64,000 nt of DNA from Cyanidioschyzon merolae (lineage: Eukaryota), in NCBI GenBank assembly GCA_000091205.1, contig AP006497.2; one strand, given 5' to 3'. Under the pieces are notes generated by a model. That model saw only the letters and a program-made list of their open reading frames with translations. It had not been told where the DNA came from and did no database searches. Position 1 is the stretch's first letter, and every line of letters begins with the position of its first letter. Below, one piece after another: positions 19,391 to 63,900 of this stretch. A program made the translations under genes and the position numbers.

Positions 19391-21600
19391 ATGGAAAATA
19401 CCAGAGCAAGTTATGGACATGGAAGTCGAGGATCCTGGAGGGCCGGTGTCGCCGGCTGCCGGAAAAATTAGGGAAAACAGTGGCGAGCAAAGAGGAACAG
19501 AAGAAGAAGAAGCCAAGCCAGGAGGACCGACATCAATGACTGCTAGAAAGACAACAATGCGACGAGTTGGTTGTGACAGCCTGTCTTCTTGGACATATCA
19601 CAGATCCGTGCAAGCCAAAGTTGCAAGCGGCCATCAGAAATCGTGTCATTTCGTACTCCCTGAGTATTCGAAATGCTTCTTCAGGACTAATGAATTTGGT
19701 GAGCAAGATATATCGCAGCGTGACAATTACGAAAACAGTCGAGATTCCGGAGGAATTTATCTACAAGAGCTTCATTTGTCACCTGATGGTTGGCACAAGG
19801 GAATCATCGAGGAGAAATGGGGGAGTGCACACCCTCCACGAAACCGACGGGGCAACAAAGTACCACAAGAGCCTGAAGAATCATATGACCATGAACCTCG
19901 AACGTTTCATGATACGCGCAGTGTTTGCGCCATACCCGGGAATCTCTCGCAAAGGAATATGGGCGACTATCAATGGCATCACGAACGATGGTCATCATGA
20001 AGATGAGATAGAATTCATCGACAAGAAGACGTCACACAGGAGCAAGAATGAAGCTTCTGTAATCCGTGCGCGTATTCAAGAGCGTCGTGGGTTACTGGGC
20101 GGGCGGATCCAACAGAAAAGATATCAGAGTTGAAAAAAAATATGCAAAGATACTATCGCCTCATCCTACGGTATTTCATGTTCCTGGATCGAGAACTCGA
20201 ACGCAAGGCAGAGGTGACGTTAAGTGGGGGAAAATGAAGAGTGGGAGAGACGGAAGGCTCTCCTAATAGGAGAGCGCTTCAAAGTCGTTCCGTTGTGGAA
20301 CATGAAGTCACATTTTGTGACTACCGACTCCAGAGTCCTTTACGGTATCATGGAGGTGATCAGTTCGGAGTTCGATGTAAGGAAGACAGAGTTCTCTGGT
20401 GAAACCCGGGAACGAACTGGAAGAATATCTTCGATTTCAAACGTCTGAAAGTAAGCAAACAAAAGGTATTCACTGGTATGATCGAAACAGATGGGGTAAC
20501 CATGTGTGTACACTATCGGTGCTTGAAGGTGGATCGCCCAGTTCCGCTCGTGACGAAGCATGAAGATGAGAAGGAGGCGGATCCTTCGACGCAGAAAGTG
20601 CAGGATAACGACTTTGTTGTTGGCGCGGACCCCGGGGAATATGAATATCATAACCAACGCAGCACCCAAGCGTGCGGAAGGTGGCATTGACGGTACCTTA
20701 CGTCAGAAAGACATGCGACTTTTCAGGTTTTCGAGAGCGAAATGCTATCTAGAAACGGGTAGAATGAATGCGAGGAAAAAAATCGAGAAATGGAATGCAG
20801 GAATGAGAGAGCACCTGGAAGCTGTGAGCGATGTGACGAGCCACGGAGCGGACGTTCAGGCTTTTCTGAAATTCATGGAAGTTCGCATATGGCGCACCGG
20901 GATGCGCTGTGGGAGGAGTATGCCAAGCCCCGGTGGGCTCGTTTGCGAATGAATCTATACGGTGGTAAGCAGCGGGCATTTGCGAATTTTTTCAATGAGT
21001 TGAGCTCCCTGAAGGAGGACGAGAGTCAGAGGCTGGTTGTAGCATACGGAGCAGGTCGCTGGATGATCCCGAACGAGACTACGCCAGCTCCAAGGACAAG
21101 AACGTACAAAGAGTGCGCATAGCGTTCCGGCACGATACCTGTAGATGAGTTCCGAACATCGTATACACACCATGAACTGGGGTGTATACTCCAGAGGGTG
21201 TAGATGGAAAAGTGTCAGCGGAGTCCTGAGGATATAGCAAAGTACGGAGCGCTGACGGAGGAGCAAATGGAAAGGGGGCGAAAGTTCGAGGACTTCTCGC
21301 ATTGGTACGTACAATCAATGGCAAGAAACGTATGGAGTTTGTGAACCGAGGCTTGAACGCCGCCATCAATATCAGGAGATGTGCGGTGCTGGAGACGAGA
21401 CCTCCAAAGCTGACGAGAGAGAATTTTGTGGGGGAACCTCTTATGGTCATATTATACGGCAAGAAGCTGGAACCACTCGTAGGTTGCCGGTCCAAAAAAA
21501 CCGGGAGGCGTCTGCACGTCAGTTGGACGCTTTTCGTCTGGGGCGCCGGTCGCCGCCACTTTTGTACACCGCCGGCGGCTGCGTTTTTCTTTAGAACGGC
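19391..21600 (+). mobile_element. Fanzor/TnpB-like element, copy C (degenerate; multiple frameshifts)
   Basis: Collinear homology to copies A/B across ORF fragments 19567..20133, 20224..20448, 20478..20690 ([11 protein letters not shown], a RuvC-I-like DPG motif), 20560..20952, 20790..21122 (LVVAYGAGRW) and 21302..21661 (KRMEFVNRGLNAAINIRRCAVLETRP). A 1-nt indel relative to copy B is visible at about 21270. The 5' end 'tatggacatggaagtcgaggatcctggagg' is shared with the 31.1-kb copy. Confidence 0.6.
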
Positions 21601-21633
21601 CTTCGGTGTTAGCGTTGGCACTAGCAGTTTATC

Positions 21634-24427: not shown

Positions 24428-25715
24428 AGCGCGGGTCGTGTTCCGGACGCCCAGGAATGCCGTCCCGAGTTCACTTTGACAGCAGCGACGCTCGACAAAG
24501 CTGCTTTTCCTGGTTTACGGAGCAGCCTACAGCGGAATCGTACCCAGCGTAGCGACAGCGCAGCGTCAAGCGACACTGTTTCGCGGGTAGCGTTATCGCC
24601 GCGCGCTCTGCAGCGGGTGTACGCACAGGCCTCGACTCGACGACCGCAGACAGCGGCACACTACGAGGCCGCTATCTCTGCGTCCGAGGACAGCAGTGGT
24701 CATCCAGCGCCATGACTCCGTGTTTGTCCTGGGACTGGGGTGGACTCGAAAGTCGCAGAATCCCTTGATCCGTCGAGCGTCTATGCCCCCGACCACAAGG
24801 TCGGTCTGGAGCTGCTGGAGCGCACATATGTCTGCGCAGGCAGGCGCTAACACCTGTTTCCTGGACTGTGTAGTCTCTTGGTACTCGGGTGCCTCGCTGA
24901 ATCAATGTAGAGCCATTTAGTTTACACCATGAAAGAAAAGTGACGCTGAGTGCTCCAATGTCTGAAAAGGAAACGTATAAACTTGTGTGGAAATGTCGTT
25001 GGCGTGCATCCAGCGAGGCTTACGCGCTCAATGGGAAACAGAACTGTTGGCGTGCTTGCCATCGAAGGATGCCGTACGCCTGCATGCAAACTGACCTCTG
25101 TGGAGATGCTCGCCAGTTAGCACTCGGGGGATGCATCGTACACACCTAGCTTGTCGTCCGTTCGAGCTGCGTCTGTGGTCGACGAAATCACGACATGCTA
25201 GAGAGCGCCAGCACACACGGGTCACGACTTGAACACCGCAGCGCTGGGGGCGCGTACGCCCGTCGTGCGCAAGCGCCGTCAGTATCGACTGCTGCAGGTT
25301 GCGGTTAGCTGCTCGCCACAACAGTACGGGAGTTAGATAGCGTTTGACTCTTGAACGGTGTCGGTGGTAATGATGGAGTGCCCTGCGCGGGATCTGTGTT
25401 GCGTTGACCATGCTTAGTGACTGCAGCGCTTTTGTGGTCGTTCCAAGGTTCTGCTACCGGTTGCACGTGGGCGCGTCGCCGCCCGGAGCGTTGCAGTCGT
25501 CACGACGGCGAGTGGCTAGGTTACGGGAGCGCTCTGCTGGCACGCTTCCCTGGGCACGTGCAACATTCTGCAAGGCTGGGTGTCGTATTGGCAGCAGCAG
25601 TTGCAGCGTGTTGCTTCGCTGGAAGTCGTGCTTTCTTGCCGGTGAGGAGCGTTCGCACCTCCGCCAGCTCGGAAGCTTGGTACAACAACCGGGCGCTCTC
25701 CGTCAGCACGTAAGT

Positions 25716-26531
25716 ATGAGCTTGTTCTCAACGCCTGCTCAAGTCAGTTCTTATGAAATAATTGAGTCATATCCACACGACCCGAGTGCGTTCACGCAAG
25801 GCCTCGTCTACGCTGAGGCGCCGATTCATTCCCCAGACGAGGCCGAGTGGACGATGTTGCAAACCTCGACTGAGGTCTTTTACGAGTCCACCGGTCTTGT
25901 GGGGGAATCTTCACTGCGCTGCGTTCACAAGTTATCAGGGAAAGTCCTAAAATGTGTGCAGGTCCCGGCACCGCATTTCGCTGAGGGCCTCGCGCTCGTT
26001 CCACGACCCACTCGGATGCTGTTCCAGCTCACGTGGCTGACCCGCACAGCCTTCCTCTACGACGGTGTATCGCTGAAACAGGTGCGGGAAATACCGTACG
26101 ATCTCGAAGGCTGGGGAGCAACCTATGATTCCAATCGCCATTGCATCTACACGAGTAATGGAACCGACCGAATCCATATCGTGGACGCAGACACCTTCGA
26201 GATCCTGGACCAAGTTCGGGTCCGTTCGAGTCCGTACAAGTTCTCGCGCTCTTGCCCGACATTGTGGTACCTGAACGATCTCGAAATGATTCCCGATACT
26301 GACGAGCTCTGGTGCAACGTTTTCTTCAGTGACTATGTTGCGGTTGTGGATCCAGCGTCATGGGAACTGAAACGATGGATTGACCTGCGCGGTTTACTCT
26401 TACCCGAGCATTGCCTGCCTTGCCATGAAGTGGATGTCTTGAATGGACTGGCCTGGGACAGAAATCGGCAACTGATGTACGTGACCGGGAAACGCTGGCC
26501 GCGAATGTATGCCATTCGAGAACGCCCATAG
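25716..26531 (+). CDS. Plant/bacterial-type glutaminyl-peptide cyclotransferase (beta-propeller QC), paralog 1; ORF track extends upstream to 25404 without recognisable signal peptide
   Basis: YEIIESYPHDPSAFTQGL, the hallmark N-terminal motif of plant-type QCs, followed by propeller blades (YESTGLVGESSL..., WGATYD..., IHIVDADTFE..., LNGLAWD...MYVTGKRW). Start assigned to the first in-frame ATG before the conserved domain, at 25716. Confidence 0.7.
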   Translation: MSLFSTPAQVSSYEIIESYPHDPSAFTQGLVYAEAPIHSPDEAEWTMLQTSTEVFYESTGLVGESSLRCVHKLSGKVLKCVQVPAPHFAEGLALVPRPTRMLFQLTWLTRTAFLYDGVSLKQVREIPYDLEGWGATYDSNRHCIYTSNGTDRIHIVDADTFEILDQVRVRSSPYKFSRSCPTLWYLNDLEMIPDTDELWCNVFFSDYVAVVDPASWELKRWIDLRGLLLPEHCLPCHEVDVLNGLAWDRNRQLMYVTGKRWPRMYAIRERP

Positions 26532-27954
26532 CCAGCAGCGTGATATAGGCTCTAGCGCCCACCAGGTCGGAACCGGCAGTAACTAGAATCCCCAGTACCT
26601 CTCTGGTGCTGAAGAGCGATAATCCGATTCCGGTACCGGGGGCGATCAGAGCGCAGCATTTGCTGCTGCCCGAGTCGAGGATCTCCTGCAGCAGCGCATG
26701 CGGCACCAAACCTGTTCACAGCGAAATGCATGCAGTATTTATGGGAAGGTAACCCCGCGCTCCGATTCCATCGGATATCACGAATTACTGCAAGCTATGG
26801 TGAAAACAGCTTGCGGTAAGGGAACGTCACGTACGGCGTTTGAATATCGGCATGATGTACAGGCTGAGTCATCGCATGGTGCACCAGGCGTGCTTTTTTC
26901 CGCACTGGTCGTGACGTCATTCATTGGCGCCGTGTGCATGGCAATGCATGCGTACACACAGGCGCGCATTTTCTATATACATAGACTCGAATGCGACACA
27001 TGCGTTCACTACTGATCGCTGTATACAGCGAGCACCAGCAGCAGCACTGGACTTGAGAGCGCCTAAAAAGAATAGAGACTAATCGCTAACTAGCTGCAAC
27101 TGTGCCGGAAGTACAAATACTAACAATTAAGTAGCTACTCGATAACAATTCCGTGCCACCTTCACGGTAAGCTTTGAAAAGGGAGCATTATCCCGTAATT
27201 TCGAAAGTTTACCTCATAGGCGGAGAGTCCCACCAGCCGGACGAATATGTCGGACCTGCGCTCCCTGCTGCTCCCAGACCCGAGTGCTGTGGCAAGACCT
27301 GTACAGATCGTCCATCACGCATTTCATTCACGGACTAGGAATGGGTAGGTTGCATCCAAGTGTCGCCCTGGTCGCTGTCGGCTTGTGGTATAGCGCTTCG
27401 CGTTGCCGCTGGCAGTAGGTCTGTCTGAGTAGCTTGCATGCACCCAGCATGATTATGGATCCCGATCCCGCACCATGCAAACTACACCTCCAGCCGATGC
27501 CCTCATCGATACCGTAAAGCGGTTCTGTCGCCCTAACGCATCTTCCCCAGCGGTATACGCGCTATTGCAGGTGCAGCAAGGCAGGCACTCGGCGCACGCT
27601 AGAACCTACGGAACGACAAGCGTATCCGAAAGGAACTCGCCGAAATGGAACGTGAATGCATGATGCATCATGATGGACGAGTTTCCGATTACCAATATCC
27701 ATCCCACAAACTGACATCCATGTACAAGTAAACGTTCTGACGAATGAGAAACATAGTCTTGAAAATGCTCCTCGACGGCGCCTGTGTCCAGATGATTCCC
27801 GCCAGGAGTGCGCAGCGCCGCAGGCGATCGTGATCCATCCTGCCTTGGACCATGGTATTCACTTTCCGCAGGCGGGGTAGTGTGTGCACAGTTTCAGGAG
27901 AGGCTGACGCACGTAGACGTTGTTTAGGGGAACTTTTGGCCGCGTTTAGGCCCT

Positions 27955-31136: not shown

Positions 31137-31623
31137 CATCTATGGGACAGGTATGGACATGGAATTCGGGAATCCTGGAGGCTCGGTCTAGCCGGGTGTC
31201 GGAAGAGAAACGGAAACATCCTCTTCTCGCCAACCAGCAAGCGAAGAAGAGCAAGTCGTGAAGAAGAAGAAGAAGACGAGGAAAAGCGGAGATAGGCGAG
31301 GAAAGTTGGTTGTCCGATGTGACGATGACGGGACTGTAGTGGCGCAGAAGGCGCAAGTTCTAGGAATCCTTGCATTGGTACGTTCCACCAACGGTATTGC
31401 AAGCATGGCGTTCGTAAACAAAGCCTTTAACGCTGCTATCAATATCAGACGATGTGCGGTGCTGAAGACGAGACCCGCGGAGCTTACGCGATCTAAATTT
31501 GTATGGCAGCCGCTAAGGCTCGAAGTGTGCAGGGATAAACCGAAACCGATAGCAGGTGGCAGGTCAAAATACGCTGGGAGGCGTCTACACGTCGGTGTAG
31601 ATACAGACACGCTATCGTCGTGA
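31137..31623 (+). mobile_element. Internally deleted (MITE-like) derivative of the Fanzor-like element: 5' about 190 bp joined to 3' RuvC-III module
   Basis: The 5' part matches the copy C 5' end ('tatggacatggaattcgggaatcctggagg', (gaa)n tract, 'gttggttgt'). It then jumps directly to the 3' module (ORF 31258..31623: ...AFVNKAFNAAINIRRCAVLKTRPAELTR...GRRLHV). It sits immediately downstream of the DDE remnant at 30230..31035. Confidence 0.55.
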
Positions 31624-45128: not shown

Positions 45129-47726
45129 TCAAAATGGAGATTCTGCACCCGATAGGGACGAGACGGCGTACATGCCTTCCAAGTCGGAGGCGCTCCACGC
45201 ATCCATGTTGGCTTCGTCGTCCTCCGCCGAGAGACGCAGATATTCGAGTGCTGCGAAGCGATCCCAGTCCGTTAGGTCGGGGACTGCCCGCTCCTGTCTC
45301 AAGAGTGATGGATCTCGACTTTCGATCGCGATGAACTTGTTCAAGTTGAACAGGATATTGAAGAAATGGCTCTGCATGCGACTGGATCGTAAAGCTGAAC
45401 GCGTGATCACCGGTGGATCAAGATCCTTGCTGATCATGTCCAGCAACTGACAGAGAATATCCTCAAATGCAACTGGTTCGTGCCCCAGACACTCCATTCG
45501 ATGCAGTTGTTCTGAATAGAGCCAATCAACATCGTACAGGGTGATCTTTCCATCGCCGTCCGCATCAATGCAGCGAAACCAATAATCCAAGGCCGTCTCT
45601 GAATTCTTGTCTTCCTCGCTGAGGATAAACCAGATGAAATCCGTATAGCTCATGTAGCCTGGGCGTGCGCAGTCGAGAGGCCTTCCTCGTCCACTAAAGA
45701 TACAGTCAATGATCCGGTAGGTCAGGGCGTGCCCGTTGTAGCGCAGCAGATCCTCGCGGTCGATCATGAGATCATGATCTGTGTCCAATTCCCAGAATCG
45801 ACAGTAAATCACGTAGAAATGCTCGTAGCTGAAACAACTACGCTCCTGGTTGATGTCCTCTTGTTCGTCGACGCTTCGAAAAATGTCCAAGAGACGATGT
45901 CGGCGGATATCCGACAGATACGCCTGCCCATTCGGCCGGTTCAGATAGTAGAATATCCGTTCGATGACTGTCTCAGCGTAGCGATGCTGGAACTCTGGGG
46001 TGGACTGCAGAAACTGTAAGCCGGGATGCGTCGCCAGCAGCGCATCAATGAAGGGTCGAAAGTCGGAACCAACAAGGTATCGGCGCTCATGTGCTTGTCG
46101 GTCGGCTCGATCCCGTTGCCCGTCGAGATTCCGCCGATTCGATGTCCATGAAGCTGCTGCAGACCTGGGCGAGATGCTGCTTCTTGGTGAGGATACGCTG
46201 TGAGCGTCGCTCTCCGTACGCTCCTCGTTCGGAACCGATGCGTGATAGTCACGGGAGCGTTGGAGTGCGTGGAAGAGGCGAGCGTGTCGATCGTAGCCGG
46301 CACAGTCCTCAACATACCATTGCAAGAATATGGACTGATGGATACGCTCACCCGTTGCCCCCGGGATGCTGATCTCCTTTGCGCCCTTCTTGTTCGTACC
46401 TTCTACCTCCGAAGCTACGTTGGACGTTTCGAAGTGCTGTTGGCGTTGGAGCAAGCGCTCGAAAATGACCAGCGAGACAAAGCTCGGCAACCCGACAATG
46501 TCCATAATGAGTTCAACGACCTCGCGCTGGCTCAGTGCTCCGTCTTGGCAATCAAAAGCGGCCTGTATGGCCTGTTGTTCTTCTGCAGCCCGGATGACGT
46601 GTTCGTGCGCGCGCCCATCTGGATAGTAGAAGCGCGGGATCGTCTCCGCCTTTGCGAATGCGCACTCTGATGGTACAAAGAGCGCATTCACCGCTGAACG
46701 CTTGTTCAGACCTCCTGAATGGAGCGCATTTCGCTGGTGTGCTGTCTCCTCACATGCAGGTAATGGTGGCGAGAACGATGCTCCATTCTCAGTCGAAGAG
46801 CCATCGTGGCCTACTCCCGAGTCCATATATGATGCGATCTCATGGCAACGCTCCTCGGTATCGGATTGACCATGTGCCATCGCCGCATCGCTATCCTCAA
46901 CTTCGGACCAGATCCTAAAAACCTCATACTTTCTGATGAAATGTGATACTGGCGACTGTGGGCTCGACGTCAAAGAAGCTTCCTCTGTGGAGCTACTCCG
47001 TGAACGGCCTTGCCTTGCAACGCGTGCTTCGCCACCAGCGGGCGAGCCCGGAGTTTGGCTCAAGATGCGATAGAAGGCGCTGCGCGCCGCTCCGGCCGGG
47101 GAGTTTGGCGTAATGGTATCGGCATTCGTCGGACGCTTTGCGGTTGCCCCGTGCGATGCAGCATTACACGAAGCTGTCGGGCTCGAAAGTCGTTCCTGGC
47201 GGAGCATGGTAGGCTTCGGTGAACCAGCAGTCACAAGATCTTCGTCGGTCACCCTTCCCGTGACGTCCAGTTTCCCCAGGACCTGCTCCAACCAAGCGAG
47301 CGTTTCCGGGAGAAACAACCAACGCATAAAGAGGTACTCTAAGTGCCGTTTCGGCTCTAGCGCAATATCCGTGGCCGATAGCGTCACCAGCAGTTTTGGT
47401 GCGTCCATGGTGCCGGAAATCGCGTGCACACCGGACTCGTCGCCCCCGGTAACAAACACAGCTGTAACCTCTATACCAGACTCTATGGTCTGCTCAGAGG
47501 ACATTATTGAAGCGTTCCTACGTAGATCACTCGAGCTGCTGCAGCTCAGCGGAGTCAGGCCGGGGAGATGTGTGCCAAGCCTCACCCGCTTGCGTCTCAA
47601 GACACGAGGCGAGACTGGAACGCACCTTTCAACTTTACAACCATCGCCAGAAGCCGTTCGAAAGTCGAACGACGTCGGGCGTGTACAGTAGTGGCGGCGA
47701 ACGCGCCCTAGACAAATCGTCTCCAA
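45129..47726 (-). CDS. Protein phosphatase 2A regulatory subunit B-double-prime (PR72/PR130/TON2-type, EF-hand containing)
   Basis: Conserved B-double-prime core: FYYLNRPNGQAYLSDI, FWELDTDHDLMIDREDLLRY, EF-hand DADGDGKITLYDVDWLYSEQ, FEDILCQLLDMISK. The N-terminal about 500 aa are low-complexity and Ser-rich. The first codons overlap the end of Fanzor-like copy A, so the true start is probably downstream. Confidence 0.75.
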   Translation of the reverse strand: METICLGRVRRHYCTRPTSFDFRTASGDGCKVERCVPVSPRVLRRKRVRLGTHLPGLTPLSCSSSSDLRRNASIMSSEQTIESGIEVTAVFVTGGDESGVHAISGTMDAPKLLVTLSATDIALEPKRHLEYLFMRWLFLPETLAWLEQVLGKLDVTGRVTDEDLVTAGSPKPTMLRQERLSSPTASCNAASHGATAKRPTNADTITPNSPAGAARSAFYRILSQTPGSPAGGEARVARQGRSRSSSTEEASLTSSPQSPVSHFIRKYEVFRIWSEVEDSDAAMAHGQSDTEERCHEIASYMDSGVGHDGSSTENGASFSPPLPACEETAHQRNALHSGGLNKRSAVNALFVPSECAFAKAETIPRFYYPDGRAHEHVIRAAEEQQAIQAAFDCQDGALSQREVVELIMDIVGLPSFVSLVIFERLLQRQQHFETSNVASEVEGTNKKGAKEISIPGATGERIHQSIFLQWYVEDCAGYDRHARLFHALQRSRDYHASVPNEERTESDAHSVSSPRSSISPRSAAASWTSNRRNLDGQRDRADRQAHERRYLVGSDFRPFIDALLATHPGLQFLQSTPEFQHRYAETVIERIFYYLNRPNGQAYLSDIRRHRLLDIFRSVDEQEDINQERSCFSYEHFYVIYCRFWELDTDHDLMIDREDLLRYNGHALTYRIIDCIFSGRGRPLDCARPGYMSYTDFIWFILSEEDKNSETALDYWFRCIDADGDGKITLYDVDWLYSEQLHRMECLGHEPVAFEDILCQLLDMISKDLDPPVITRSALRSSRMQSHFFNILFNLNKFIAIESRDPSLLRQERAVPDLTDWDRFAALEYLRLSAEDDEANMDAWSASDLEGMYAVSSLSGAESPF

Positions 47727-50195
47727 TTGCTGTGTAGACGCCTTCCCGTCTTTTTGGAGCGGCCGCCAACTACTGCTTCCAACTTTTTCTCATATAGTTC
47801 GACCTTGAGAGGTTGTCCAACAAAGTTCACTCTTGTCAACGCTGGAGGTCTCGTCTCCAGCGCCGCACATCTCCTTATATTGATGGCGGCGTTAAAGTCT
47901 CGGTTCACAAACTCCATACGTTTCGTGCCATCACTGGTTGTACTTACTGATGCAAGCAATCCTCGAACTTTCGCTCTCCTTTCCATTTGCCCTTCCGGCA
48001 GCGCTCCGTACTTTTTCGTATCCTTAGGGCTCCGCTGGCACTTTTCCATCTCCACCCTCTGGAGTGTACACCCCAGTTCATGGTGTGTATACGATGTTCG
48101 AAACTCATCTACAGGTATTGTTTCAAAACGCCGTGCGCGCTCCCTCTACGTTCTCGTCGTTGGAGCTGGCGTCGTCCTTTTTGGGTCTTCCATCGGCCTG
48201 CTCCGTACGCTACTATGAGCCTCTGACTTTTATCCTCCTTCAAGTCACTCAACTGATTGAGAAAGTTCGCGAACGCACGCTGCATCCCACCGTAGAGATT
48301 CATTCGCAAACGAGCCCACCGGGGCTTGGTATACTCCTCCCACAGCGCATCCCAATGGGCAACACGAACTTCCATGAATTTCCGAAAAGCATCAAGGTCC
48401 GCTCCTCGGCTCGTCACCTCGCTCATAGCTTCCAGGTGATCCTTCATTCCTGAATTCCATGTAACGATTTTCTTCCTCGCATTCACTATACCGGATTCTC
48501 GATAGTATCTCGCTCTCGAGAACCTCAACAGACGCATGTCTTTCTGACGAAAGTTGCCGTCAGCACCATCTTCCGCACGCTTGGGAGCAGCGATGGTGAT
48601 GATATTCGTGTTTCCGGGGTCCGCGCCAAGGACAAAGTCGTTATCCTGCACTTTCTGCATCGCAGGATCCGCCTCCTACTTTTCTTCATGCTTTGCCGCG
48701 TCAGCGACAAAGTCGTTATCCTGTACCTCCAGCGTCTCAGGATCCGCCTCCTTCCCATCTTCATCCTTCGTCACGTCAACGTTAAAGTCGTTATCCTGCA
48801 CTTTCTGCATCGTAGGACCCGCCTTCTTCTCATCTTCATGCTTCGTCACGTCAACGACAAGGTCGTTATGCTCCACCTCCTGCGTCGCAGGACCCGCCTC
48901 CTTCTTTGCTTCATCCTTCGTCACGGGCGCAGCCGAGGGCGGAACTGGCCGATCTTTCCTCAATGCCGATAGTGTACACAGATGGCTACTCCATCGGTTT
49001 CGATCAACCCAGTGAGTACCTTTTGTTTGCTGACTTTGAGAAGTTTGAAATTGAAGATATTCTTCCGGTACGCCTCCTGGTTTTCACCGGAGAACTCCTC
49101 CCTGCGAACATTGAACTCCAGACTGATCTCCTTCATAATGCCGTGAAGGATTCTGGAGTGGATGGACACAAAATCTGACCTTATGTTGCACATTGGAACC
49201 ACGTTGAAGCGCTTCCCCATTAGGAACGCCTTCCGTCTCTCCCGCTCTTCATTTCTTTCCTCACTCAGCTTCATCTCCGCTTTGCGTTCGAGCTCTCGGT
49301 CCAGAAACACGAAATATCGCAGGATGAGGCGATAATATCTTTCCTTATCTTTTTTCAACGCTGATATCTTTTCTGCTGGATTCGCCAGCCCCAAGACTGC
49401 ACAGTGCTCTTGTATAGCCGTACGGATTACAGAATCCTCATTCGTGCTCTCGTTTGACGCCTTCTTGTCAACGAATTCGATCTCATCTTCATGCTAGCGA
49501 TCTTTCGTGATGGCATCGATAATCGCCCATATTCCATTGCGAGATAGGCCCGGGTAGCGTGCAAACACGGCGCGTATCATGAAACGTTCGAGGTTCATAG
49601 TCAAATGCTTCTTCAGGTTCGTGAGCTACTTCATCGCCCCATAGTCGTAAATATTCGAGTCACCCTTGTATCGAGTACCATTGAATCTGTAAAAGGGATG
49701 TTTTTCGTGGAGGGTATGCACTAGCACATTTTCCTTCCGCGCTTTCTCTTTACGAAGCATCAGGTGTTGAATAAACGTCTTATCGATGGACTCGTCCGGA
49801 ATCTCGACCGTTTCGATCTGCGTCACGTCGCGATACATCTCTCTCGCCAAATGCATCAGTCCTGACGAAGCCTTGACAAGACTCTTGGAGTACGAGTCGA
49901 CACGGTTTTCGATTGCGTCTCGCAACTTTTCCCTGTACGGATCCTTGATATGTCCAAGAAGAATGGTTGTCGCCACCTTCTCGACGTACAGCCGTCTTTC
50001 TTGCCGCCTTCGACGTAGGGCCTCTCCCTTTAGGTCCTTCTTCGCTTCCTTGTCTTCTGGACTCGGCACAGTTTTCGTTTTTTTCTGGTAGTCGGCGACA
50101 CTGAGCCTCCAGGATCGTCGGCTTGCTGTTTCATAGCTTTTTTGTTTCTTTGAAAAACAACGCTCTTTGAAGGCTTCTGTTACATACAGCGACAA
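47708..50195 (-). pseudogene. TnpB/Fanzor-like RuvC nuclease pseudogene (about 650 codons over 4 frame-shifted segments)
   Basis: Homologous segments are in-frame and continuous in copy C (for example TLHETDGATKYHKSLKNH) but interrupted by TAG stops here (YGAMK*, KDR*). Confidence 0.6.
48617..48900. repeat. Coding minisatellite (about 69-nt unit, about 4 copies) inside copy A; single copy in copy B
   Basis: Repeated peptide module K[DH]EDEK[KE]AGP..Q.VQDNDF.VDVT (ORF 48676..48963). The corresponding stretch at 55880-55940 in copy B has one unit. Confidence 0.75.
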
Positions 50196-51149
50196 AACGC
50201 TTGACTAGACTTGTTTGAGGTTTGAACCACAAATGAATTAGAAAACTACACTTTGCTACGACCTGAACGGATATCCAATGTTTTACAGCTGAACAACACG
50301 TTACTGATGCCCACGACAGGGACCTTTACCACAATGAACGGAGGGGCGGAGGCAGTAGCAGCAGAAAATATTGACGATAATTCTGAGTAGTTATCCGCTG
50401 CTCCCGAAACAACGCTGCAGCTTCGGGCGCAAAATCTGGGTCCATCCTCGAGCTCGGGCTCAGTTTTACCTCCTTCTTCGGTTTCTACCTCAACTCTGGA
50501 AACAATCTCGGCGGATATTTTGGAAGACGGCTGGCGGTATGTTCGCGTTCGAAGCTGGAACGAACGACTTGCCCGCCTATGTGTTTGGGGAGCGGATACA
50601 AAGCCGCTGAAAGGTTGGTTCGTAGAGTATCCCCAGTGGTTGAGGGGAGCTTCATGTGTCCGGCAAGATAAAGGTCGCATTCGAGTCGACCTTGACTAAT
50701 GTACATCTGATTCTACGCTAGTGCGGCGCCAAGCACTCAATGAACGACTGGAATGCGGGAGGCGCTGGTGGCATGTACGCTCACACACCCCGTGGAGGGT
50801 GCATCTAAATTGACGACGTATCTCTGGAGTACCGCAGCGCTATTCCTATTCCGTTACGCGCTACAAATCGGTAGGTATTGCATCATGGAATATTTGTGGT
50901 GTAGCCTCGAAACTAGAATAAGAGATATCGAATTACTAGTAGAGTAAAGAGGATCAGATACAACTGAAGGACTCTACAAAAGGAAAAGCGATCCAACGAG
51001 ATACGGAGAAGGAGACACAGGAACCTCATGATCCACCTAGATGCAAAATAACCAGAGAAAGCAGCTCAGGAAAGAGCCCGAAGAAGAAGAAGACCAACAA
51101 GAAAAGACAGAAGAATAGAGAGAAGAACTCCCAAGCGAGCCCATCATGA

Positions 51150-53378: not shown

Positions 53379-54477
53379 AAGGCTCCCGCCGCCTCTAGCG
53401 AACGGTCCGAACAACCATATGGGAATTTAGACAAGGTACCAGTCGCGCAAGTAACGCCGGCTTGACCCTATCCGGAACTACACCCTAGCATACACATGCA
53501 AGTACTGGTAGGGGGTGCTGGAATTCCCGGGACTTGCTCGAGGTACCCAGTGGCTCGCCAAAATCCGCGTTGGTGGCTTCCGGCTGGCAGCACCGGCTCT
53601 AAGCCGGAAAGGAGCACTGGAATCGCACTGGGAATCACACTGTCCCTGCTGTGGAGACGAGAGCCCCCGAGAAGCTGACGCATTTACTGTTACAGTGCCC
53701 GCGCTAGAATCAGGAGCGCAGCGAGCTCCTTGAAGGACAGCAGCAGCTGGGCATCAGCGTGATAGTGGAAGGCCGGACACTCATTCTGAGTGTAGCACTG
53801 GCAACTGATGGTCCGCTAACCGAGCCGCAGCGCTCGTTAGTGGCGAACAAACTCACATTCTACCTTCTAAGCGGCAGGTCCAACGAATCGGATGAGCACA
53901 CGGGTTTAGTGCTCTTTGTGCCTGCCTACTGGCGGGTGTCAAGCACAAACCCGCATTGCCGACCGACAACACATTCAATGCATGATCACGAAGGAGAGAG
54001 GCGGCTCCCAGGATTCATCCTAACAGCCAAGTTTCTCCAGCGTGTCGTGCAGCGAAGGTAAGACTGCATTTGCAGACTCGCTGAGCATATATCGACGAAG
54101 AGACCCGATTCTACGTCGGGTGAACCACGCCTCGAGCCGACGCCCTCTGTGGTATAGCAACGCCGTTCTGTCTCTATGAGCTATCTGCTCCAGCATTTAA
54201 GGTGCAAAGGCGAATACGGAGCGGCAGCTACTAGGCACACACGATAGGACGTATGAAACGACCAGAATATCTGAGATGAAGCATAGGTAATCTAACTTGG
54301 AGGCAGGTGCTTCATCATGGACGCTTTCCCGAAAGCCATTATCCATTCCAAATTCTGGGATCCATGGTCAATGGAAACGTCTTGTCAATAACAAAAAAAC
54401 AAATTGCGCTCGGTGGGCGCACCTCGGAGATCGGGAAGTCAACTGACACGACGCGCATGCCGCCGTAGAAGGGTAAC

Positions 54478-56890
54478 GCGATTGGGATCAGTAACGTGTT
54501 GTTCAGCTGTAAAACATTGGATATCCGTTCAGGTCGTAGCAAAGTGTAGTTTTCTAATTCATTTGTGGTTCAAACCTCAAACAAGTCTAGTCAAGCGTTT
54601 TGTCGCTGTATGTAACAGAAGCCTTCAAAGAGCGTTGTTTTTCAAAGAAACAAAAAAGCTATGAAACAGCAAGCCGACGATCCTGGAGGCTCAGTGTCGC
54701 CGACTACCAGAAAAAAACGAAAACTGTGCCGGGTCCAGAAGACAAGGAATCGAAGAAGGACCTAAAGGGAGAGGCCCTACGTCGAAGGCGGCAAGAAAGA
54801 CGGCTGTACGACGAGAAGGTGGCGACAACCATTCTTCTTGGACATATCAAGGATCCGTACAGGGAAAAGTTGCGAGACGCAATCGAAAACCGTGTCGACT
54901 CGTACTCCAAGAGTCTTGTCAAGGCTTCGTCAGGACTGATGCATTTGGCGAGAGAGATGTATCGCGACGTGACGCAGATCGAAACGGTCGAGATTCCGGA
55001 CGAGTCCATCGATAAGACGTTTATTCAACACCTGATGCTTCGTAAAGAGAAAGCGCGGAAGGAAAATGTGCTAGTGCATACCCTCCACGAAAAACATCCC
55101 TTTTACAGATTCAATGGTACTCGATACAAGGGTGACTCGAATATTTACGACTATGGGGCGATGAAGTAGCTCACGAACCTGAAGAACCATTTGACTATGA
55201 ACCTCGAACGTTTCATGATACGCGCCGTGTTTGCACGCTACCCGGGCCTATCTCGCAATGGAATATGGGCGATTATCGATGCCATCACGAAAGATCGCTA
55301 GCATGAAGATGAGATCGAATTCGTTGACAAGAAGGCGTCAAACGAGAGCACGAATGAGGATTCTGTAATCCGTACGGCTATACAAGAGCACTGTGCAGTC
55401 TTGGGGCTGGCGAATCCAGCAGAAAAGATATCAGCGTTGGAAAAAGATAAGGAAAGATATTATCGCCTCATCCTGCGATATTTCGTGTTTCTGGACCGAG
55501 AGCTCGAACGGAAAGCGGAGATGAAGCTGAGTGAGGAAAGAAATGAAGAGCGGGAGAGACGGAAGGCGTTCCCAATGGGGAAGCGCTTCAACGTGGCTCC
55601 AATGTGCAACATAAGGTCAGATTTTGTGTCCATCCACTCCAGAATCCTTCACGGCATTATGAAGGAGATCAGTCTGGAGTTCAATGTTCGCAGGGAGGAG
55701 TTCTCCGGTGAAAACCAGGAGGCGTACCGGAAGAATATCTTCAATTTCAAACTTCTCAAAGTCAGCAAACAAAAGGTATTCACTGGGTTGATCGAAATCG
55801 ATGGAGTAGCCATCTGTGTACACTATCGGCATTGAGGAAAGATCGGCCAGTTCCGCCCTCGGCTGCGCCCGTGACGAAGGATGAAGCAAAGAAGGAGGCG
55901 GGTCCTGCGACGCAGGAGGTGGAGCATAACGACCTTGTCGTTGACGCGGACCCCGGAAACACGAATATCATCACCATCGCTGCTCCCAAGCGTGCGGAAG
56001 ATGGTGCTGACGGCAACTTTCGTCAGAAAGACATGTGTCTGTTGAGGTTCTCGAGAGCGAGGTACTGCCGAGAATCCGGTATAGTAAATGCGAGGAAGAA
56101 AATCGTTACATGGAATTCAGGAATGAAGGATCACCTGGAAGCTATGAGCGAGGTGACGAGCCGAGGAGCGGACCTTGATGCTTTTCGGAAATTCATGGAA
56201 GTTCGTGTTGCCCATTGGGATGCGCTGTGGGAGGAGTATACCAAGCCCCGGTGGGCTCGTTTGCGAATGAATCTCTACGGTGGGATGCAGCGTGCGTTCG
56301 CGAACTTTCTCAATCAGTTGAGTGACTTGAAGGAGGATAAAAGTCAGAGGCTCATAGTAGCGTACGGAGCAGGCCGATGGAAGACCCAAAAAGGACGACG
56401 CCAGCTCCAACGACGAGAACGTAGAGGGAGCGCGCACGGCGTTTTGAAACAATACCTGTAGATGAGTTTCGAACATCGTATACACACCATGAACTGGGGT
56501 GTACACTCCAGAGGGTGGAGATGGAAAAGTGCCAGCGGAGCCCTGAGGATACGAAAAAGTACGGAGCGCTGCCGGAAGGGCAAATGGAAAGGAGAGCGAA
56601 AGTTCGAGGATTGCTTGCATCAGTAAGTACAACCAGTGATGGCACGAAACGTATGGAGTTTGTGAACCGAGACTTTAACGCCGCCATCAATATAAGGAGA
56701 TGTGCGGTGCTGGAGACGAGACCTCCAGCGTTGACAAGAGTGAACTTTGTTGGACAACCTCTCAAAGTCGAACTATATGAGAAAAAGTTGGAAGCAGTAG
56801 TTGGCGGCCGCTCCAAAAAGACGGGAAGGCGTCTACACAGCAGTTGGAGACGATTTGTCTAGGGCGCGTTCGCCGCCACCGCTGAAAACT
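54478..56890 (+). mobile_element. Fanzor/TnpB-like element copy B (right arm of inverted duplication), pseudogenised
   Basis: ORF fragments 54600..55169, 55401..55835, 55832..56461 ([19 protein letters not shown] at 55937-55966; LIVAYGAGRW) and 56515..56862 (NRDFNAAINI at 56665-56694; ...GRRLHSSWRRFV stop). Confidence 0.65.
54600..56862 (+). pseudogene. TnpB/Fanzor-like RuvC nuclease pseudogene
   Basis: Same as the copy A pseudogene; identical premature stops. Confidence 0.6.
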
Positions 56891-57163
56891 GCGGGAAGCA
56901 ACGTCTTTCTTTTGAAAGAGGTTTGTTGTTGCTGGTGGCGGTTGTGCATCTTTATATCCTGGATCGTGTCAGCGATCTCACACGGTACAAAAGTTGAAGG
57001 GGTGCAACACACGTACAGCTTCTCTGTCTGGGCACGTGCAACGCTCGAATCCTGGCGGCGCTCTCGAGACTGATAGAGAAAGCCCGCTTGTGAGGTATGC
57101 TCGGCGCTTGTTTGATTCGCGCTCTTACCCTGCGCAGGAAGCCGTGAACAAAATACTGCTGGC

Positions 57164-59260
57164 ATGGAGGCAGAAGGGGTTGCTGTTGCGACTGCCGCAG
57201 AGCAGGCAGCACTAGTATTCTTCTGCGGTCCGCTGAACGGCAGCATCTTTGTAGCGGAGTGCGCAGAAGTAATAGATGCCGCTATCGTTGAGAGCTCCGA
57301 GGCGTGGCGCTGGACGGTGCGACCAGTGTGGCTGCGCTCTCCCACGAGCGACAACGCATTGAGCCCCGCACTGGCGAGAGCAACCACTGACGGACGCGAA
57401 AGAAAGCGACAGCGGACGAAACCTGCTGACGTATCCGCCAATGTGTCCGAACGAGAGCACCTCCGAGCAGCCAAGGTTGCCGCTGCCCGCTCTCTGCGTG
57501 GCAATGGGGTACGCTGTATCGCGGCTCAGCGCTGCGGGCGGGCGACAAGTCGGGGCGATGGCGAGACCTGCTGGATGCTTGCCGCTGCCGGAGATGATAA
57601 GATACTGCGCGTTTTTCGAGGGAAACACATACAACCCGCGCAAGCGACAGATGCAGCGATGCTCTGGGAGACTGTCGTCGAAAAGTAAGCTGGTTCGGTA
57701 CGAGTACCTCGCTAGCATGCCGAGATCTAAGGATGAAGCGTATAACTGCATTGGACTAGAGTTTCTGAGTCTAATTCTGTGCTGAAAGCGTTGCTTTCCC
57801 TTGGCTGTCTGAAGCTTTCCGGAACGCTGGCCGGGTGCCTCGCACGCTTGACGATACGAGCGTCGCGGATGGAGCCTTTGCTGGACAGATAAACTAACCG
57901 CGGTAATTTTGAGCACAGAGCGAACCCGAAACGGATGACAGCTGTACAGCTGGGTTTCGACGGCCGTGTGGCGCTCACAGCCGACAAATTCGGTGACGTC
58001 TACGCGCTCCAGATCGGGGAGGAAGCGTTGCTGCCAGAGCCGGCTTGGCAGTATTTGTTGCGTCAGCCGGTATATGTTGCGGGGGACGCTTCTGTAGAGC
58101 CAGTCATGGGGCATTTGTCAATCATTACATCGTTGGCAATCGATCCTGGAGGCCGTCTCATAGCTAGTGCTGACATCGAGGGCCAAATTCGCATTTCGGC
58201 ATTTCCGGAGGTGTACAGAGTAGAGCAAATCTACTCTAGTTGCGGCGGTGATCCATCATGGTGCACATCCAGCGACTTTATCACGAGACTCTCCTGGAAG
58301 CATGGTAGTCAAACGCCAACGCTCATAGGCGCTGGGACCGACGTCTGGTTCGTGGCAAAACAAGTGAAGCCGGTGCCCGCGGCACGCGACACTTGCGATG
58401 GTGAATCCTGTTGGCGTATCTGGGGTGGGCGTCTCGGCTCCTTGCGCGGAACTGGAGCGGCCTATGAGGGATCAACTTCAGACGAGAACGCATCAATGGT
58501 GGCCCGAGCGCCTTCTGAGGGTGCAGCTGGCCGCGCACTGGGTCGAGCATCGGGGCTGGAATCTTGCTCGACGCACGGTTTCACGTGGATTTGTCTGGAT
58601 ATCGATGCTCGCCTGACGCTAGCGCTCTGGGGCAACGCTCAGCATCAGACGTGCTTCAGTATTATTTCGTTGATGAACGCGGAATCCGAGAGCGCACTGC
58701 ATCGTTTGAATGAAAGACTGGGCGATGCTCGAGCTCGCTATCGAACGCGTATACCAACCGGATGCTGCTCACTGCCGCTCAGCACGTGCTTGCCCAAGGG
58801 CCGTGAACACCAGCTCCGGTCGTTATCGACGCCCGTAGAACTGTGCTCGATGATCTTCGTTCCGACAGCGCCTGGTCCACTTGATGCCGCGGTCTGCTCG
58901 ATGCATGAGACAGGCGCCCGGTGGACACCTGAGGTGACCCGAACCTCCACAGACGTCTCTGAACCCGAAGCTGTTCGTTTCTTCTTTGTTCTTCCCTTTG
59001 TGGAAAGCGATGACCCAGCAGCGGAGGATGCGCTGTTGCCTCTGGCGGCGACGATGCAGTGGACGCTCAACCAGTCCGTCGCAACTTGCATCCGAGAGTC
59101 CAGCGGGGCGTTCAGTACATCTGAGCGAGCAAACACACCTTACAATGCCTTACATCACTCGGGCTGGAGCTGGATATTCGATCAGGCATGCAACGCCGTG
59201 ACCGGAGGCGACGGAAGCCCAGCGCCCGTGCCGACCCCCACTACGGAAACCTCGAGGTAG
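57164..59260 (+). CDS. WDR4: tRNA (guanine-N7)-methyltransferase non-catalytic WD-repeat subunit (WDR4/Trm82 homolog); two exons inferred (57164..57684 and 57919..59260)
   Basis: Exon 1 ends ...AAAGDDKILRVFRGK... (compare human ALTDDSKRLILFRTK). Exon 2 has TADKFGDVYALQI (WDR4 hallmark DKSGDVYSF) and HLSIITSLAIDPGGRLIASADIEGQIRISAFPEVY (compare [30 protein letters not shown]). Both ORFs are in the same frame, separated by a TAA. GTAAGC at 57685 and CACAG ending at 57918 give a 234-nt in-phase intron. Confidence 0.65.
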
Positions 59261-60797: not shown

Positions 60798-62096
60798 TCA
60801 CTTGTGAACTTGGGTGCCTGTGGGGCCACCTAAACAGCATAAATCCAGAAAGCATGGCGTTTGGAGTGGTTCCGCAGACACCAAGGCAACAGCCGTCTTT
60901 TTTTCGTTCGCGAACGACGTGCTGTTTCGTGCAACGAACTGCGCAGAGCTCTCCCGCAGTCCTGCGAGCGGCTAGTGCGCTCTCCTGGAACGAAGGCGGA
61001 GCCCAGAGGCCGCTTTGGTTCGTTCCCCCGGCCACAGGAGGACAATCTAAACATTGTGCGAGTGGTAGTCTGTTGATCGCTGCCTCTGACGGGAAACCGG
61101 CGCACACGAACTTGAACCGTCAACGTTCGGGGCCTGCATATCGACCGTCGCGGGACACCAGGCGCGGTGGACACCACCGTGCAGGCGGACGCCCCCAAGC
61201 AAGGCGTTCCGAACAGCAGTGTTTCGTGCTCGTCGCCAACCCGTGCAGACGACCAACGCAGCGCCCGATTATTGAAGTTCGGGCAAGCAAGGCTGTCTTT
61301 GGGAAACGAGCAACGGTGCGGACCCGAGCGCGAAGACGCCTTCGCGCTGCTGCACGGCAAGTGCTGGTGATCTGGGGACGCAGCGACTTTTCCTACGTTA
61401 TTCACGGCTTACCGGAATGTCTCTTTGTGTCGTGGAAAGACCTGCTACAGGAAATGATGGAAGCTTTGCAACGGTCTGGTTGTGCGCATGAGAAAGCTCG
61501 TGCTCCGCCACGTCTACCGCAGCACCCACACGACGCCTCCTCTTCATCAAATGGGCAGGCGTCTGCCGCGGAATCCACCAAAGACGGTTCTCCAGCCGCG
61601 CAGTTGACTCAAACAGATGAAAAACCCACTACAGACGCGTTTCGACGACAGTAGCGCCAATGTCACTGCAGTGAAGCGGCGCTCGAACCATACCAGCATG
61701 ACGACTCAGACAAGAGCTGGAAGTACTGTATCGCATGAGCCGATGTTGGCGACCATTCTTCCATTCCATTGAGGAGTAGAATCGATGATGCGAGGAGGTC
61801 GCCATGCGCGCTAGTGGATGATAGCGAATAGAGCGAAACGGCATTCAGTGCTGTGGCCGACGACAGTGCCCCAGATGCATGCCCCTAGCCCAATGCCCCT
61901 ATTCTGATCACGATACCTGCAGCGATGCCTTGGTGTAGCGTTTTTCGGATGCAATACAGGCAGGCTGCATCGAATGGATGCGGAATATGGCGGGAAACGG
62001 GACACGTGTGCCTTGAATGAACCCCGCGATCATGAGGAACAAGCGGACTCGCCCGTGTGTGTATCAACCGCGTCTCCTTGCGGTGTTCACATTCCG

Positions 62097-62540
62097 CTGA
62101 TAAAGCGCTTTGCTGAGTACGAGACGTTCTCGTGATGAGAGCGCAGCCCCGGTGCTTGTCTCTCGCAGTGATCACGCCCATGGCAGAGCACTGGGAACCC
62201 CCGCATTGCACTCATAAAGCGCTTTGCTGAGTACGAGACGTTCTCGTGATGAGAGCGCAGCCCCGGTGCTTGTCTCTCGCAGTGATCACGCCCATGGCAG
62301 AGCACTGGGAACCCCCGCATTGCACTCATAAAGCGCTTTGCTGAGTACGAGACGTTCTCGTGATGAGAGCGCAGCCCCGGTGCTTGTCTCTCGCAGTGAT
62401 CACGCCCATGGCAGAGCACTGGGAACCCCCGCATTCCACTCATAACGCGCTTTGCTGAGTACGAGACGTTCTCGTGATGAGAGCGCAGCCCCGGTGCTTG
62501 TCTCTCGCAGTGATCACGCCCATGGCAGAGCACTAGGAAC
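62097..62540. repeat. Tandem satellite, about 115-bp unit x about 3.9
   Basis: The unit 'cataaagcgctttgctgagtacgagacgttctcgtgatgagagcgcagccccggtgcttgtctctcgcagtgatcacgcccatggcagagcactgggaacccccgcattgcact' is repeated head-to-tail; the last copy has point substitutions. Confidence 0.85.
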
Positions 62541-63900
62541 CGGAACGAGTGCGTGCACTGCGATTCAGCTTGAGAATGAGGAGATCCTCGATACCATGTG
62601 CTAAACGAATACCTGGTGGACAGCAAATATCCCGACCATATCGCCGCTCTTCGAGTTGCATACGCGCCACACTGATTGCTAAAAACGGAGGCGGTATCAC
62701 GTCGCGCTCCACGAACACATCGATGGCTCGTACGATCCAGTTCACGAACCCGAGTTGAAGGTCGGTGCATTCCTCCAGATCGGTCGGACGAACTGGCAGC
62801 CGCATTCGAAAGCCACGGGGGTGCAGTACACCCGATACATCAACGGCATAAAAACCCGCATGAATAGGCAGCATGTTCACCGGATCGATTTGGAGCTGTC
62901 GTAGAACAGCCCGATAACAGTGGTCGATCGGTTGTGCTGATCCGTTTTGCACAGCGCTTAATGCCGCTTCATCAGTGTAAACAATGAGGTTATAGAGTGG
63001 TCCGCAAAACGTCAGTGAGTTACGTCGATTCCGAGCGCAGCGGTGGTAAACATGCAGGTCCGCATAGAGCGGCTCCAACGGCACACTAAGATAGATGTCA
63101 GGCTGTTGATAGCGTTGAATCACCGCAGGGATCATGGTTTTCGAGTGTCTGTTTCGGGACCTTGCCGAGCTGGCACGGTTCGGTCGCAGCATCCCCGTCA
63201 GGCTAGTGAGTGCGGGGTGTAGAGGCGCCAACCACTGAGGCCCCGGTGACTGCTCCACTGCTGCAGACGCTTTCTGCACAGTCGCTGCCTGAGCTGCCTG
63301 CCGGTGCTGTTGGTTGCGTAGGCCCCAGCGCGACTCTTGGAGTGATCTAGCAACGCGACTGGCAACCTGAGGCTGCACGCGAGCCGAGGCTAGCGCCGCT
63401 CGTTGCACAGCGATCCAGCCCTGCATGTGCCTCTCGGAACAACCGGCGTTTGTTGAGCTATACCAACAGCTGGACGTGAAACTCAAACTTCGAAACTGAA
63501 GTATAAACGCTCTGAAAGAAAACAACGCCAACGCTGCAGCGGCAGGTGCGCTGTCGTCTCTCGGAACACTGAAACCGATGATTGTATGCCGCTGAATGCC
63601 ATGGTTGTGGGCAAAGCAGCGAATTCTGGAGAACCTGTACCAGAACACCCTATTTATCTTGGTTTCCCCAAAGGCATGGAACAAAGGGAAAGTATCGAGT
63701 AGAGTGGAGACAAGTCCCGCAACGTCTGTGTGCTGTGCCTGCTGGCATGACCTGTACCAGAACACGCTATTTATCTTGGTTTCCCCAAAGGCATGGAACA
63801 AAGGGAAAGTATCGAGTAGAGTGGAGACAAGTCCCGCAACGACTGTGTGCTGTGCCTGCTGGCATGAAGGAGAACGGCATGACGTGTCGGTGTCAGTCAC
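62533..63900 (-). CDS. Hypothetical protein; only the C-terminal about 300 aa (62533-about 63450) look like a genuine globular domain
   Basis: Long ORF with a non-repetitive, non-low-complexity C-terminal half (…YNLIVYTDEAALSAVQNG…LPIHAGFYAVDVSG…FVNWIVRAIDVFVERD…). I cannot assign a family. The N-terminal part runs through the 117-bp tandem repeats and is probably an artefact. Confidence 0.3.
   Translation of the reverse strand: MTDTDTSCRSPSCQQAQHTVVAGLVSTLLDTFPLFHAFGETKINSVFWYRSCQQAQHTDVAGLVSTLLDTFPLFHAFGETKINRVFWYRFSRIRCFAHNHGIQRHTIIGFSVPRDDSAPAAAALALFSFRAFILQFRSLSFTSSCWYSSTNAGCSERHMQGWIAVQRAALASARVQPQVASRVARSLQESRWGLRNQQHRQAAQAATVQKASAAVEQSPGPQWLAPLHPALTSLTGMLRPNRASSARSRNRHSKTMIPAVIQRYQQPDIYLSVPLEPLYADLHVYHRCARNRRNSLTFCGPLYNLIVYTDEAALSAVQNGSAQPIDHCYRAVLRQLQIDPVNMLPIHAGFYAVDVSGVLHPRGFRMRLPVRPTDLEECTDLQLGFVNWIVRAIDVFVERDVIPPPFLAISVARMQLEERRYGRDICCPPGIRLAHGIEDLLILKLNRSARTRSGS
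63634..63867. repeat. Tandem repeat, 117-bp unit x2
   Basis: 'cctgtaccagaacac.ctatttatcttggtttccccaaaggcatggaacaaagggaaagtatcgagtagagtggagacaagtcccgcaacg.ctgtgtgctgtgcctgctggcatga' occurs twice in direct succession. Confidence 0.85.

Follow-up and report, generated by a model that had tools for sequence, protein, structure and literature searches.

A candidate guide-RNA module at the 3′ end of the Fanzor1 element CMe-1A of Cyanidioschyzon merolae

We examined a 64,000-nt stretch of the genome of the red alga Cyanidioschyzon merolae 10D (contig AP006497.2 of GenBank assembly GCA_000091205.1; hereafter the window), and found five copies, A to E, of the transposon family CMe-1A within it. By sequence, copies A, B and C are shown to belong to CMe-1A, the Fanzor1 (eukaryotic TnpB) family of Bao and Jurka (2013), in agreement with a first-pass annotation of the window that had called them Fanzor-like. 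That annotation had also described a short block at the 3′ end of these copies as non-coding and conserved, a candidate terminal or guide-RNA (omega-RNA) region; the block and its surroundings are the subject here. CMe-1A is one Fanzor1 family described for this alga, with about 150 copies each about 80% identical to a 3,169-bp consensus, of which the 5′ 635 bp are another element, TE-N2_CMe; terminal inverted repeats (TIRs) are absent, target-site duplications (TSDs) could not be determined, and no role is assigned to the 3′ end (PMC3627910).

The CMe-1A consensus and the CMe-1 protein were taken from the supplement of that paper (PMC3627910). The consensus aligns with copies A, B and C at 80–90%: copy A (54406–56918) matches positions 649–3166, the core only, at 86.4%, and copy C (18518–21600) matches positions 5–3168, the full length, at 80–86%. 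The distant copy D (31145–31596) matches in two fragments, 898–968 and 2840–3092, and the distant copy E (6204–6550) matches 2737–3086; both match only to about position 3090, at the codons for GRRLH, though their coding part is still alignable. Adjoining open reading frames (ORFs) of the window are exact protein matches to entries of C. merolae 10D.

A protein stitched together from copy A matches the published CMe-1 protein, which has about 734 aa, a nuclear-localisation-like N-terminus and internal 25-aa repeats. The Fanzor/TnpB motif of a split RuvC domain, D-X(125,275)-[TS][TS]-X-X-[zinc finger]-X(5,50)-RD, was found in three-frame translations of copies A and B as DADPGNTN ... VDEFRTSYTHHELGC...C ... 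NRDFNAAINI, with the zinc-finger cysteines only partly retained. The protein is counted among the Fanzors because of this motif and the phylogeny of Bao and Jurka (PMC3627910), not for similarity to solved Fanzors. A 75-nt (25-aa) tandem repeat lies in the Fanzor ORF just before RuvC-I, with four units in copy B (48624–48923), one in copy A (55870–55949), and several each in the metagenome proteins P0001 and P0009. In a protein search the only relatives were from JGI metagenomes, and 80 loci encoding the last 211 residues were taken. Extent and stop codon were studied in 55 non-redundant copies, conservation and structure in 46 diverged copies.

The 2.5-kb core of the element is joined, at the identical base (54403 and its equivalents, among loci L001–L081), to four or more unrelated upstream sequences. 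Because the core occurs with other 5′ parts, the published 3.17-kb consensus looks like a composite of a 635-bp TE-N2_CMe-like part and the core. The join is usually preceded by ...ATCG, in three contexts by GCATCG; ATCG could be a target motif or one like a target-adjacent motif (TAM), or else the true first bases of the core. The 5′ flank of copy B (50312–50520) matches the 5′ module of loci L012, L078 and L027.

The reported block, a 39-mer, occurs exactly in copy A and with one mismatch on the opposite strand in copy B, and its 40-mer counterpart was located in copy C. Alignment of A/B with C gives 32 identical columns of 40, confirming the identity of about 80% that had been quoted, and with 0 matches in shuffled sequences the similarity is homology rather than chance. 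The block falls at about positions 3089–3127 of the published consensus and, since its conservation does not exceed that of the remaining element, it is an ordinary piece of a known transposon. Its description as non-coding holds for 56863–56879 and fails for the first 22 nt, which carry the last 7 codons plus stop (SWRRFV-stop), as follows from the position of the family stop codon at 56860–56862. Of the 55 non-redundant copies, 34 have TAG and 8 have TAA at that codon, and 16 of the 46 diverged copies terminate in ...SWRRFV or similar at exactly this place. Reading frame and stop position had been said to differ between the copies. The frame does not: A, B and C share it through GRRLH-(S/V)SW, and copy C has simply mutated the family TAG to TGG (21540–21542).

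Nor is the block the terminus of the element. It lies within the 3′-terminal region, as proposed, but family homology continues past 56879: mean pairwise identity among the 55 copies is 0.63–0.88 up to about 56924, and then 0.25–0.30, the random level. The edge at GCCGCCAC (56879) was considered as the element end and rejected; it is only where the near-identity of A and B stops, copy A continuing with a hairpin of type v1 (AACGTTTTTC-TTTC-GAAAGGCGTT) and copy B with one of type v2. The terminal hairpin of copy A closes at GGTG (56934–56937), and we place the end of the copy A element at about 56937. The last bases of the published consensus, ...GAAAGGCG, fall within the 3′ arm of the hairpin, about 10–16 nt before the end placed here. 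A palindrome pointed out in copy D at the same place (CTACACGTCGGTGTAG, 31585–31600) proved to be at chance level and no feature of the family; perfect hairpins with a 6-bp stem and a 4-nt loop number 22 in the window, versus about 16 expected.

We therefore describe a 3′-terminal module that contains the block (Table 1). Its 5′ limit is set by ORF-less copies of the module, which begin at GGAAGCGTCTGCAC, equivalent to 56824, and its 3′ limit by the drop of family conservation to random after about 56924 together with the closure of the hairpin at GGTG. The module begins in the last 12 or so Fanzor codons, includes the stop codon, and then extends about 75 nt further, as far as the final bases of the element. 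It has the position of an omega-RNA, which overlaps the nuclease ORF at its 3′ end and reaches the right end of the transposon.

Table 1. Features of the CMe-1A copies and related elements in the window.
Feature	Positions	Strand	Remarks
Copy A, core unit, CMe-1A Fanzor1 pseudogene	54403–56937	+	homology from 54403 to about 56924–56937
Decayed Fanzor1 frame, copy A	54661–56862	+	ATG 54661 to TAG 56860–56862
3′-terminal module, copy A (about 115 nt)	56824–56937	+	candidate omega-RNA scaffold and right end
Potential 7-bp stem-loop	56827–56854	+	GGCGTCT with AGACGAT (copy A); AGACGYY in family consensus
Reported 39-nt block	56841–56879	+	56841–56862 coding (SWRRFV plus stop); 56863–56879 non-coding
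Potential short hairpin GGCG...CGCC	56863–56877	+	outer 4 pairs retained in 41–46 of 46 copies
Conserved 16-nt island	56874–56889	+	family consensus CGCCACTACTGTACAC; degraded in copy A to CGCCACCGCTGAAAAC
Terminal hairpin, copy A	56888–56937	+	core 56900–56923, type v1: AACGTCTTTC-TTTT-GAAAGAGGTT
Copy B, CMe-1A pseudogene	47641–50520	-	50308–47681 matches consensus 729–3137 at 85–90%
3′-terminal module, copy B	47641–47745	-	block 47691–47729; hairpin type v2, CGTTCGA-CTT-TCGAACG
Copy C, full-length CMe-1A pseudogene	18518–21608	+	TE-N2_CMe-like 5′ part plus core
3′-terminal module, copy C	21503–21608	+	block 21520–21559; stop mutated 21540–21542
Distant copy D, 3′ end	31347–31600	+	family similarity ends after GRRLH
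Distant copy E, 3′ end	6204–6557	+	family similarity ends after GRRLH
Solo degenerate module	25270–25368	+	no Fanzor ORF upstream; nhmmer E = 4e-4 for 25308–25361
Solo TE-N2_CMe-like element	27109–27739	-	75% to consensus positions 7–635
Inverted TE-N2_CMe-like piece, directly upstream of copy A	54104–54387	-	consensus 4–282

In characterised Fanzors the omega-RNA scaffold is encoded in the 3′-terminal region (PMC10432273, PMC10530073), and the Fanzor RNAs border directly on the element's right end (PMC10530073). Omega-RNA expression has been confirmed for 20 Fz loci, and the omega-RNA of GtFz1 overlaps 17 codons (PMC10432273); Fz1 omega-RNAs start with a 7-bp stem-loop (SL1), followed by 1–3 poorly constrained stem-loops (PMC11423790). 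The block does lie in the corresponding region, and this much of the proposed guide RNA stands, whereas the conservation offered as evidence for it does not. Our analysis suggests that in active family members the module is probably both the template of an omega-RNA scaffold and a right-end cis site. The module fits in position, in size and in general layout, and weak constraint on its primary sequence is not in itself contrary. We favour this reading on anatomy and on what is known of other Fanzors; what else speaks for it lies mostly outside the reported block, namely the conservation of a 16-nt island, a strand-specific hairpin present in two sequence types, and modules that occur apart from the ORF.

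The island is the best 16-nt window, with mean pairwise identity of 0.872 (P = 0.007 versus third-codon-position columns), and is the only part of the module to exceed the neutral background. Beyond it, the last 50 nt or so form a long hairpin, with a 5′ arm starting from CAC(C) of a conserved TGTACAC and a 3′ arm reaching ...GGTG. Over the 46 copies its folding has a mean z of -2.17, an effect that shrinks with DNA parameters (z = -1.64); folding energy is -19.5 kcal/mol for the sense strand versus -13.3 for the antisense (44 of 46 copies), and G·U makes up 21% of the pairs. Both sequence types, v1 and v2, fold, and a copy's own arms do better than arms swapped between copies (-21.5 versus -19.5 kcal/mol, permutation p = 2–4e-4).

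A profile of the module found second copies on the same strand about 3.3–3.55 kb upstream of the 3′ tail in four loci (L031, L040, L060 and L081). These lie at about positions 1–170 or 320–405, some 0.7 kb upstream of the core, and are preceded by a non-Fanzor conserved sequence (...CGACGAATAACGTAGAGGAGGTA...GGTGGTATGTTATTTT). The window has a solo module as well (Table 1), ending about 35 nt before a same-strand ORF (25404–26531). All four terminal modules of the window, in this very gene-dense genome, are found just upstream of a host ORF on the same strand (module end/ORF: 21608/21634, 25368/25404, 47641/ORF 45129–47726 on the minus strand, and 56937/57164), copy C ending 26 nt before the start codon of a branched-chain aminotransferase gene. 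In a search for the empty site by way of this adjoining gene, contigs were found to break at the repeat.

An omega-RNA made from the module might be laid out, 5′ to 3′, as the GGCGTCT/AGACGYY stem-loop, the short GGCG/CGCC hairpin, the conserved island in single-stranded form, and the long G·U-rich hairpin closing ...GGTG. Omega-RNA transcripts have their 3′ end at a fixed distance, about 14–21 nt, into the variable flanking DNA that supplies the guide. The guide here would likewise come from flanking DNA and start at 56938 in copy A, and the sense RNA would be expected to start near GGCGTCTGCAC or upstream within the ORF. The Fanzor protein would bind the module RNA and cut guide-matching DNA beside a short motif, as other Fanzor1 proteins do.

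Many of our results weigh against this guide-RNA reading, and those on conservation apply to the block most directly. Mean pairwise identity over 184 codons of the 46 copies, with the percentage of columns in which a second allele is shared by at least 5 copies given in brackets, is 0.85–0.87 (15–21%) at first, 0.88–0.89 (6–11%) at second and 0.73 (49–50%) at third codon positions. The block has 0.740 (41%), the part after the stop 0.734 (40%), and the whole terminal module 0.745 (38%), which is no excess over third positions, and apart from the island the module shows no non-coding conservation beyond neutral decay. The Fanzor protein has been under purifying selection, and the rate of change in the tail is close to that of synonymous sites. 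Selection at the RNA or DNA level had been suggested for the block from its similarity between A/B and C, and we find no such contrast with the coding part: A and C are 80.7% identical over 1768 nt, and in a global alignment their coding 40-column windows average 0.812 ± 0.079, 68% of them being at least as similar as the block. The identity of the block is the same as in the remainder of the element and matches the synonymous-site rate of the family; common descent suffices to explain it, and extra selection is unneeded. The block shows no excess of conservation or covariation relative to the coding part, the outcome that the first-pass annotation had itself named as telling against its proposal. 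Synonymous sites in the last 54 codons, where overlap with an RNA might be felt, show no significant rise in conservation over the upstream ones (0.755 versus 0.724, p = 0.11).

First and second codon positions are relaxed in the same 54 codons (0.841 versus 0.887, p = 0.002), and the C-terminal tail of the Fanzor protein may be dispensable. Several diverged copies have premature stops at two shared codons, 19 and 27 codons after RuvC-III (RPPE-stop in L003, L007, L012, L031 and L074; ENFIG-stop in L001, L014 and L047).

Structure gives further points on the same side. Covariation-aware alignment and folding, which had been suggested as a check, did not bear the proposal out: RNAalifold found no consensus structure in the 46 copies (213 columns). 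We tested four candidate helices (GGCGTCT/AGACGYY; AGAC/GTCT and its shifted register; GGCG/CGCC; and the hairpin core in two registers), and these are 76–88% paired, with pairing and compensatory counts not above shuffled and slid controls; one marginal value was traced to the split between v1 and v2. The first stem-loop has 84.5% of its cells paired, with covariation not above shuffles, and in copy A forms 6 of 7 pairs, G56828 facing A56853 (G·A). An alternative pairing of AGAC with GTCT (56848–51 with 56857–60) has 88.6% paired and covariation likewise not above controls, and the inner pairs of the GGCG/CGCC hairpin vary by subfamily (GGCGGG/CTCGCC, GGCGCG/CGCGCC) with counts not above shuffles. 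In the terminal hairpin, co-variation of the arms comes mostly from the one v1/v2 split, with few independent events, and the signal within types is weak (v2 p = 0.02, v2 distal p = 0.19, v1 not significant). Folding of the whole module has z of only -0.8 to -2.0, and of +0.2 in copy C, and an Rfam scan of 56000–57200 at E ≤ 1 gave no match. Because most of the variation is decay after insertion, the covariation tests have little power either way.

The remaining points concern the protein. Comparison with PDB sequences gave no match at E ≤ 1 for the Fanzor protein by phmmer and none at E ≤ 10 for the family profile, an AlphaFold2 model from an 11-sequence alignment was too poor for fold search (mean predicted local distance difference test score, pLDDT, of 36), and Pfam gave nothing significant for the protein, only a weak precomputed DUF8286. 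Frameshifts and in-frame stops make pseudogenes of A, B and C. In copy A the frame must change near 54700–54780, 55835 and 56400–56440 and meets in-frame stops, and in copy C the RD of RuvC-III has become RG. The modules in this window are relics, or at most act in trans.

The module might instead be a DNA signal only, a right-end recognition or cleavage site for single-strand or rolling-circle transposition of the IS200/IS605 or Helitron2 kind, with no guide RNA. Such transposition would suit an element without TIRs, and the left end scores 9 with the reverse-complemented right end, as do shuffles (8.4 ± 1.5), in agreement with the published description, in which TSDs were likewise undetermined (PMC3627910). 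It would also suit the joining of the core to unrelated upstream contexts at one base, usually after ...ATCG, the retention of the terminal hairpin in two sequence types, and the presence, at the left end of the core as well, of a sequence able to form a hairpin (GCGCTC-GGT-GAGCGC, 54403–54420 and equivalents). However, the terminal hairpin is more exceptional with RNA than with DNA parameters and has many G·U pairs, a kind that is weak in DNA; the element encodes no transposase; and its 3′ end is ...GGTG rather than the CTRR of Helitrons. A DNA-level role is a serious rival, though we regard a purely DNA one as unlikely, and as the right end and the omega-RNA of IS200/IS605 elements overlap, DNA and RNA roles could coexist in the module.

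Still less probable, in our view, is that the module is a neutral relic, a functionless 3′ untranslated stretch carried along with the gene and similar between copies from shared ancestry only. Its synonymous-like rate, the short helices without covariation or RNAalifold consensus, and the distant copies D and E, which retain recognisable coding sequence and no recognisable tail, are what such a relic would give. It would leave unexplained a 16-nt island above the synonymous background, a strand-specific hairpin that closes exactly where homology ends, and the detachment of the module from the ORF in four diverged elements with its 5′ boundary unchanged, and all characterised Fanzors use their 3′-terminal region (PMC10432273, PMC10530073).

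Copies A and B are old, lie 4–9 kb apart in inverted orientation, and are 97–99% identical from 54484/50311 to 56879/47691, while their tail types and 5′ parts differ. Loci L040 and L041 show a like pattern, the interiors of the pairs being 95–99% identical and the terminal 60–80 nt or so of different types. The pattern of both pairs looks like ectopic gene conversion stopping just inside the element ends. Should breaks made by Fanzor and mended with other copies as template be the source of this homogenisation, RNA-guided homing would have left its footprint in the nuclear genome of a eukaryote. That the module is a semi-independent guide-RNA and right-end cassette of the Cyanidiales is suggested by its occurrence without a nuclease gene, both in the 5′ part of long elements and solo upstream of host genes, by the existence of two hairpin types and by its staying distinct where interiors are 97–99% identical (A/B, L040/L041), and we hold it to be very improbable.

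In its present form the finding goes no further than the published consensus and the general expectation of 3′ guide RNAs. Should the module prove to be the omega-RNA of CMe-1, it would be a red-algal addition to the characterised Fanzor1 guide RNAs, with scaffold limits defined (about 115 nt, the guide following ...GGTG). C. merolae is genetically tractable and carries about 150 copies, and the element could then be used to study in vivo what Fanzors do for transposons. Elsewhere in the window, tandem repeats of 114 nt (four units, 62090–62541) and 117 nt (two units, 63633–63866), 97–99% identical and lying within long minus-strand ORFs, are unrelated to the Fanzor block.

Three kinds of known system can be compared with CMe-1A. 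Helitrons begin with 5′-TC (or T) and end in CTRR-3′, have a 3′ hairpin 10–30 nt before the end, and encode a Rep/helicase in autonomous members. CMe-1A has a ...GGTG end, no Rep/helicase and no terminal inverted match, asymmetric or otherwise. The Helitron2 elements of Chlamydomonas with Fanzor1 (CRe-1, 2 and 3; PMC3627910) share with it a hairpin close to either end, the lack of classical TIRs and Fanzor1 as cargo, and differ in their Rep/helicase and in a hairpin followed by a spacer, where that of CMe-1A reaches the terminus.

Elements of the IS200/IS605 type encode a Y1 TnpA transposase, have a subterminal hairpin at either end and insert 3′ of a fixed 4–5-nt motif. Members such as ISDra2 resemble CMe-1A in the lack of TIRs and of recognised TSDs, in hairpin-capable sequences at both ends, in a nuclease ORF that at its 3′ end shares sequence with the putative scaffold of the guide RNA, and in a short motif in TAM position, just outside the left end in CMe-1A (...ATCG). 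CMe-1A differs in being eukaryotic and nuclear, in its size (2.5–3.2 kb) and in having no TnpA.

The omega-RNAs of the Fanzor1 proteins SpuFz1, GtFz1 and PpFz1 (PMC10432273, PMC11423790) have no detectable sequence similarity to CMe-1A in protein or RNA, and SpuFz1 has 30-nt inverted repeats where CMe-1A has none. Like the module, they occupy the 3′ end of the ORF, reach the right end of the element, and overlap slightly with the last codons, 17 in GtFz1 and about 12 in CMe-1A. The putative scaffold of CMe-1A is also like theirs, of the order of 75–120 nt, with a stem-loop of about 7 bp first and less constrained stem-loops after it. Finally, the ORF-less ‘ghost’ loci of S. punctatus keep the omega-RNA region (PMC10432273), which recalls the ORF-less modules of CMe-1A.

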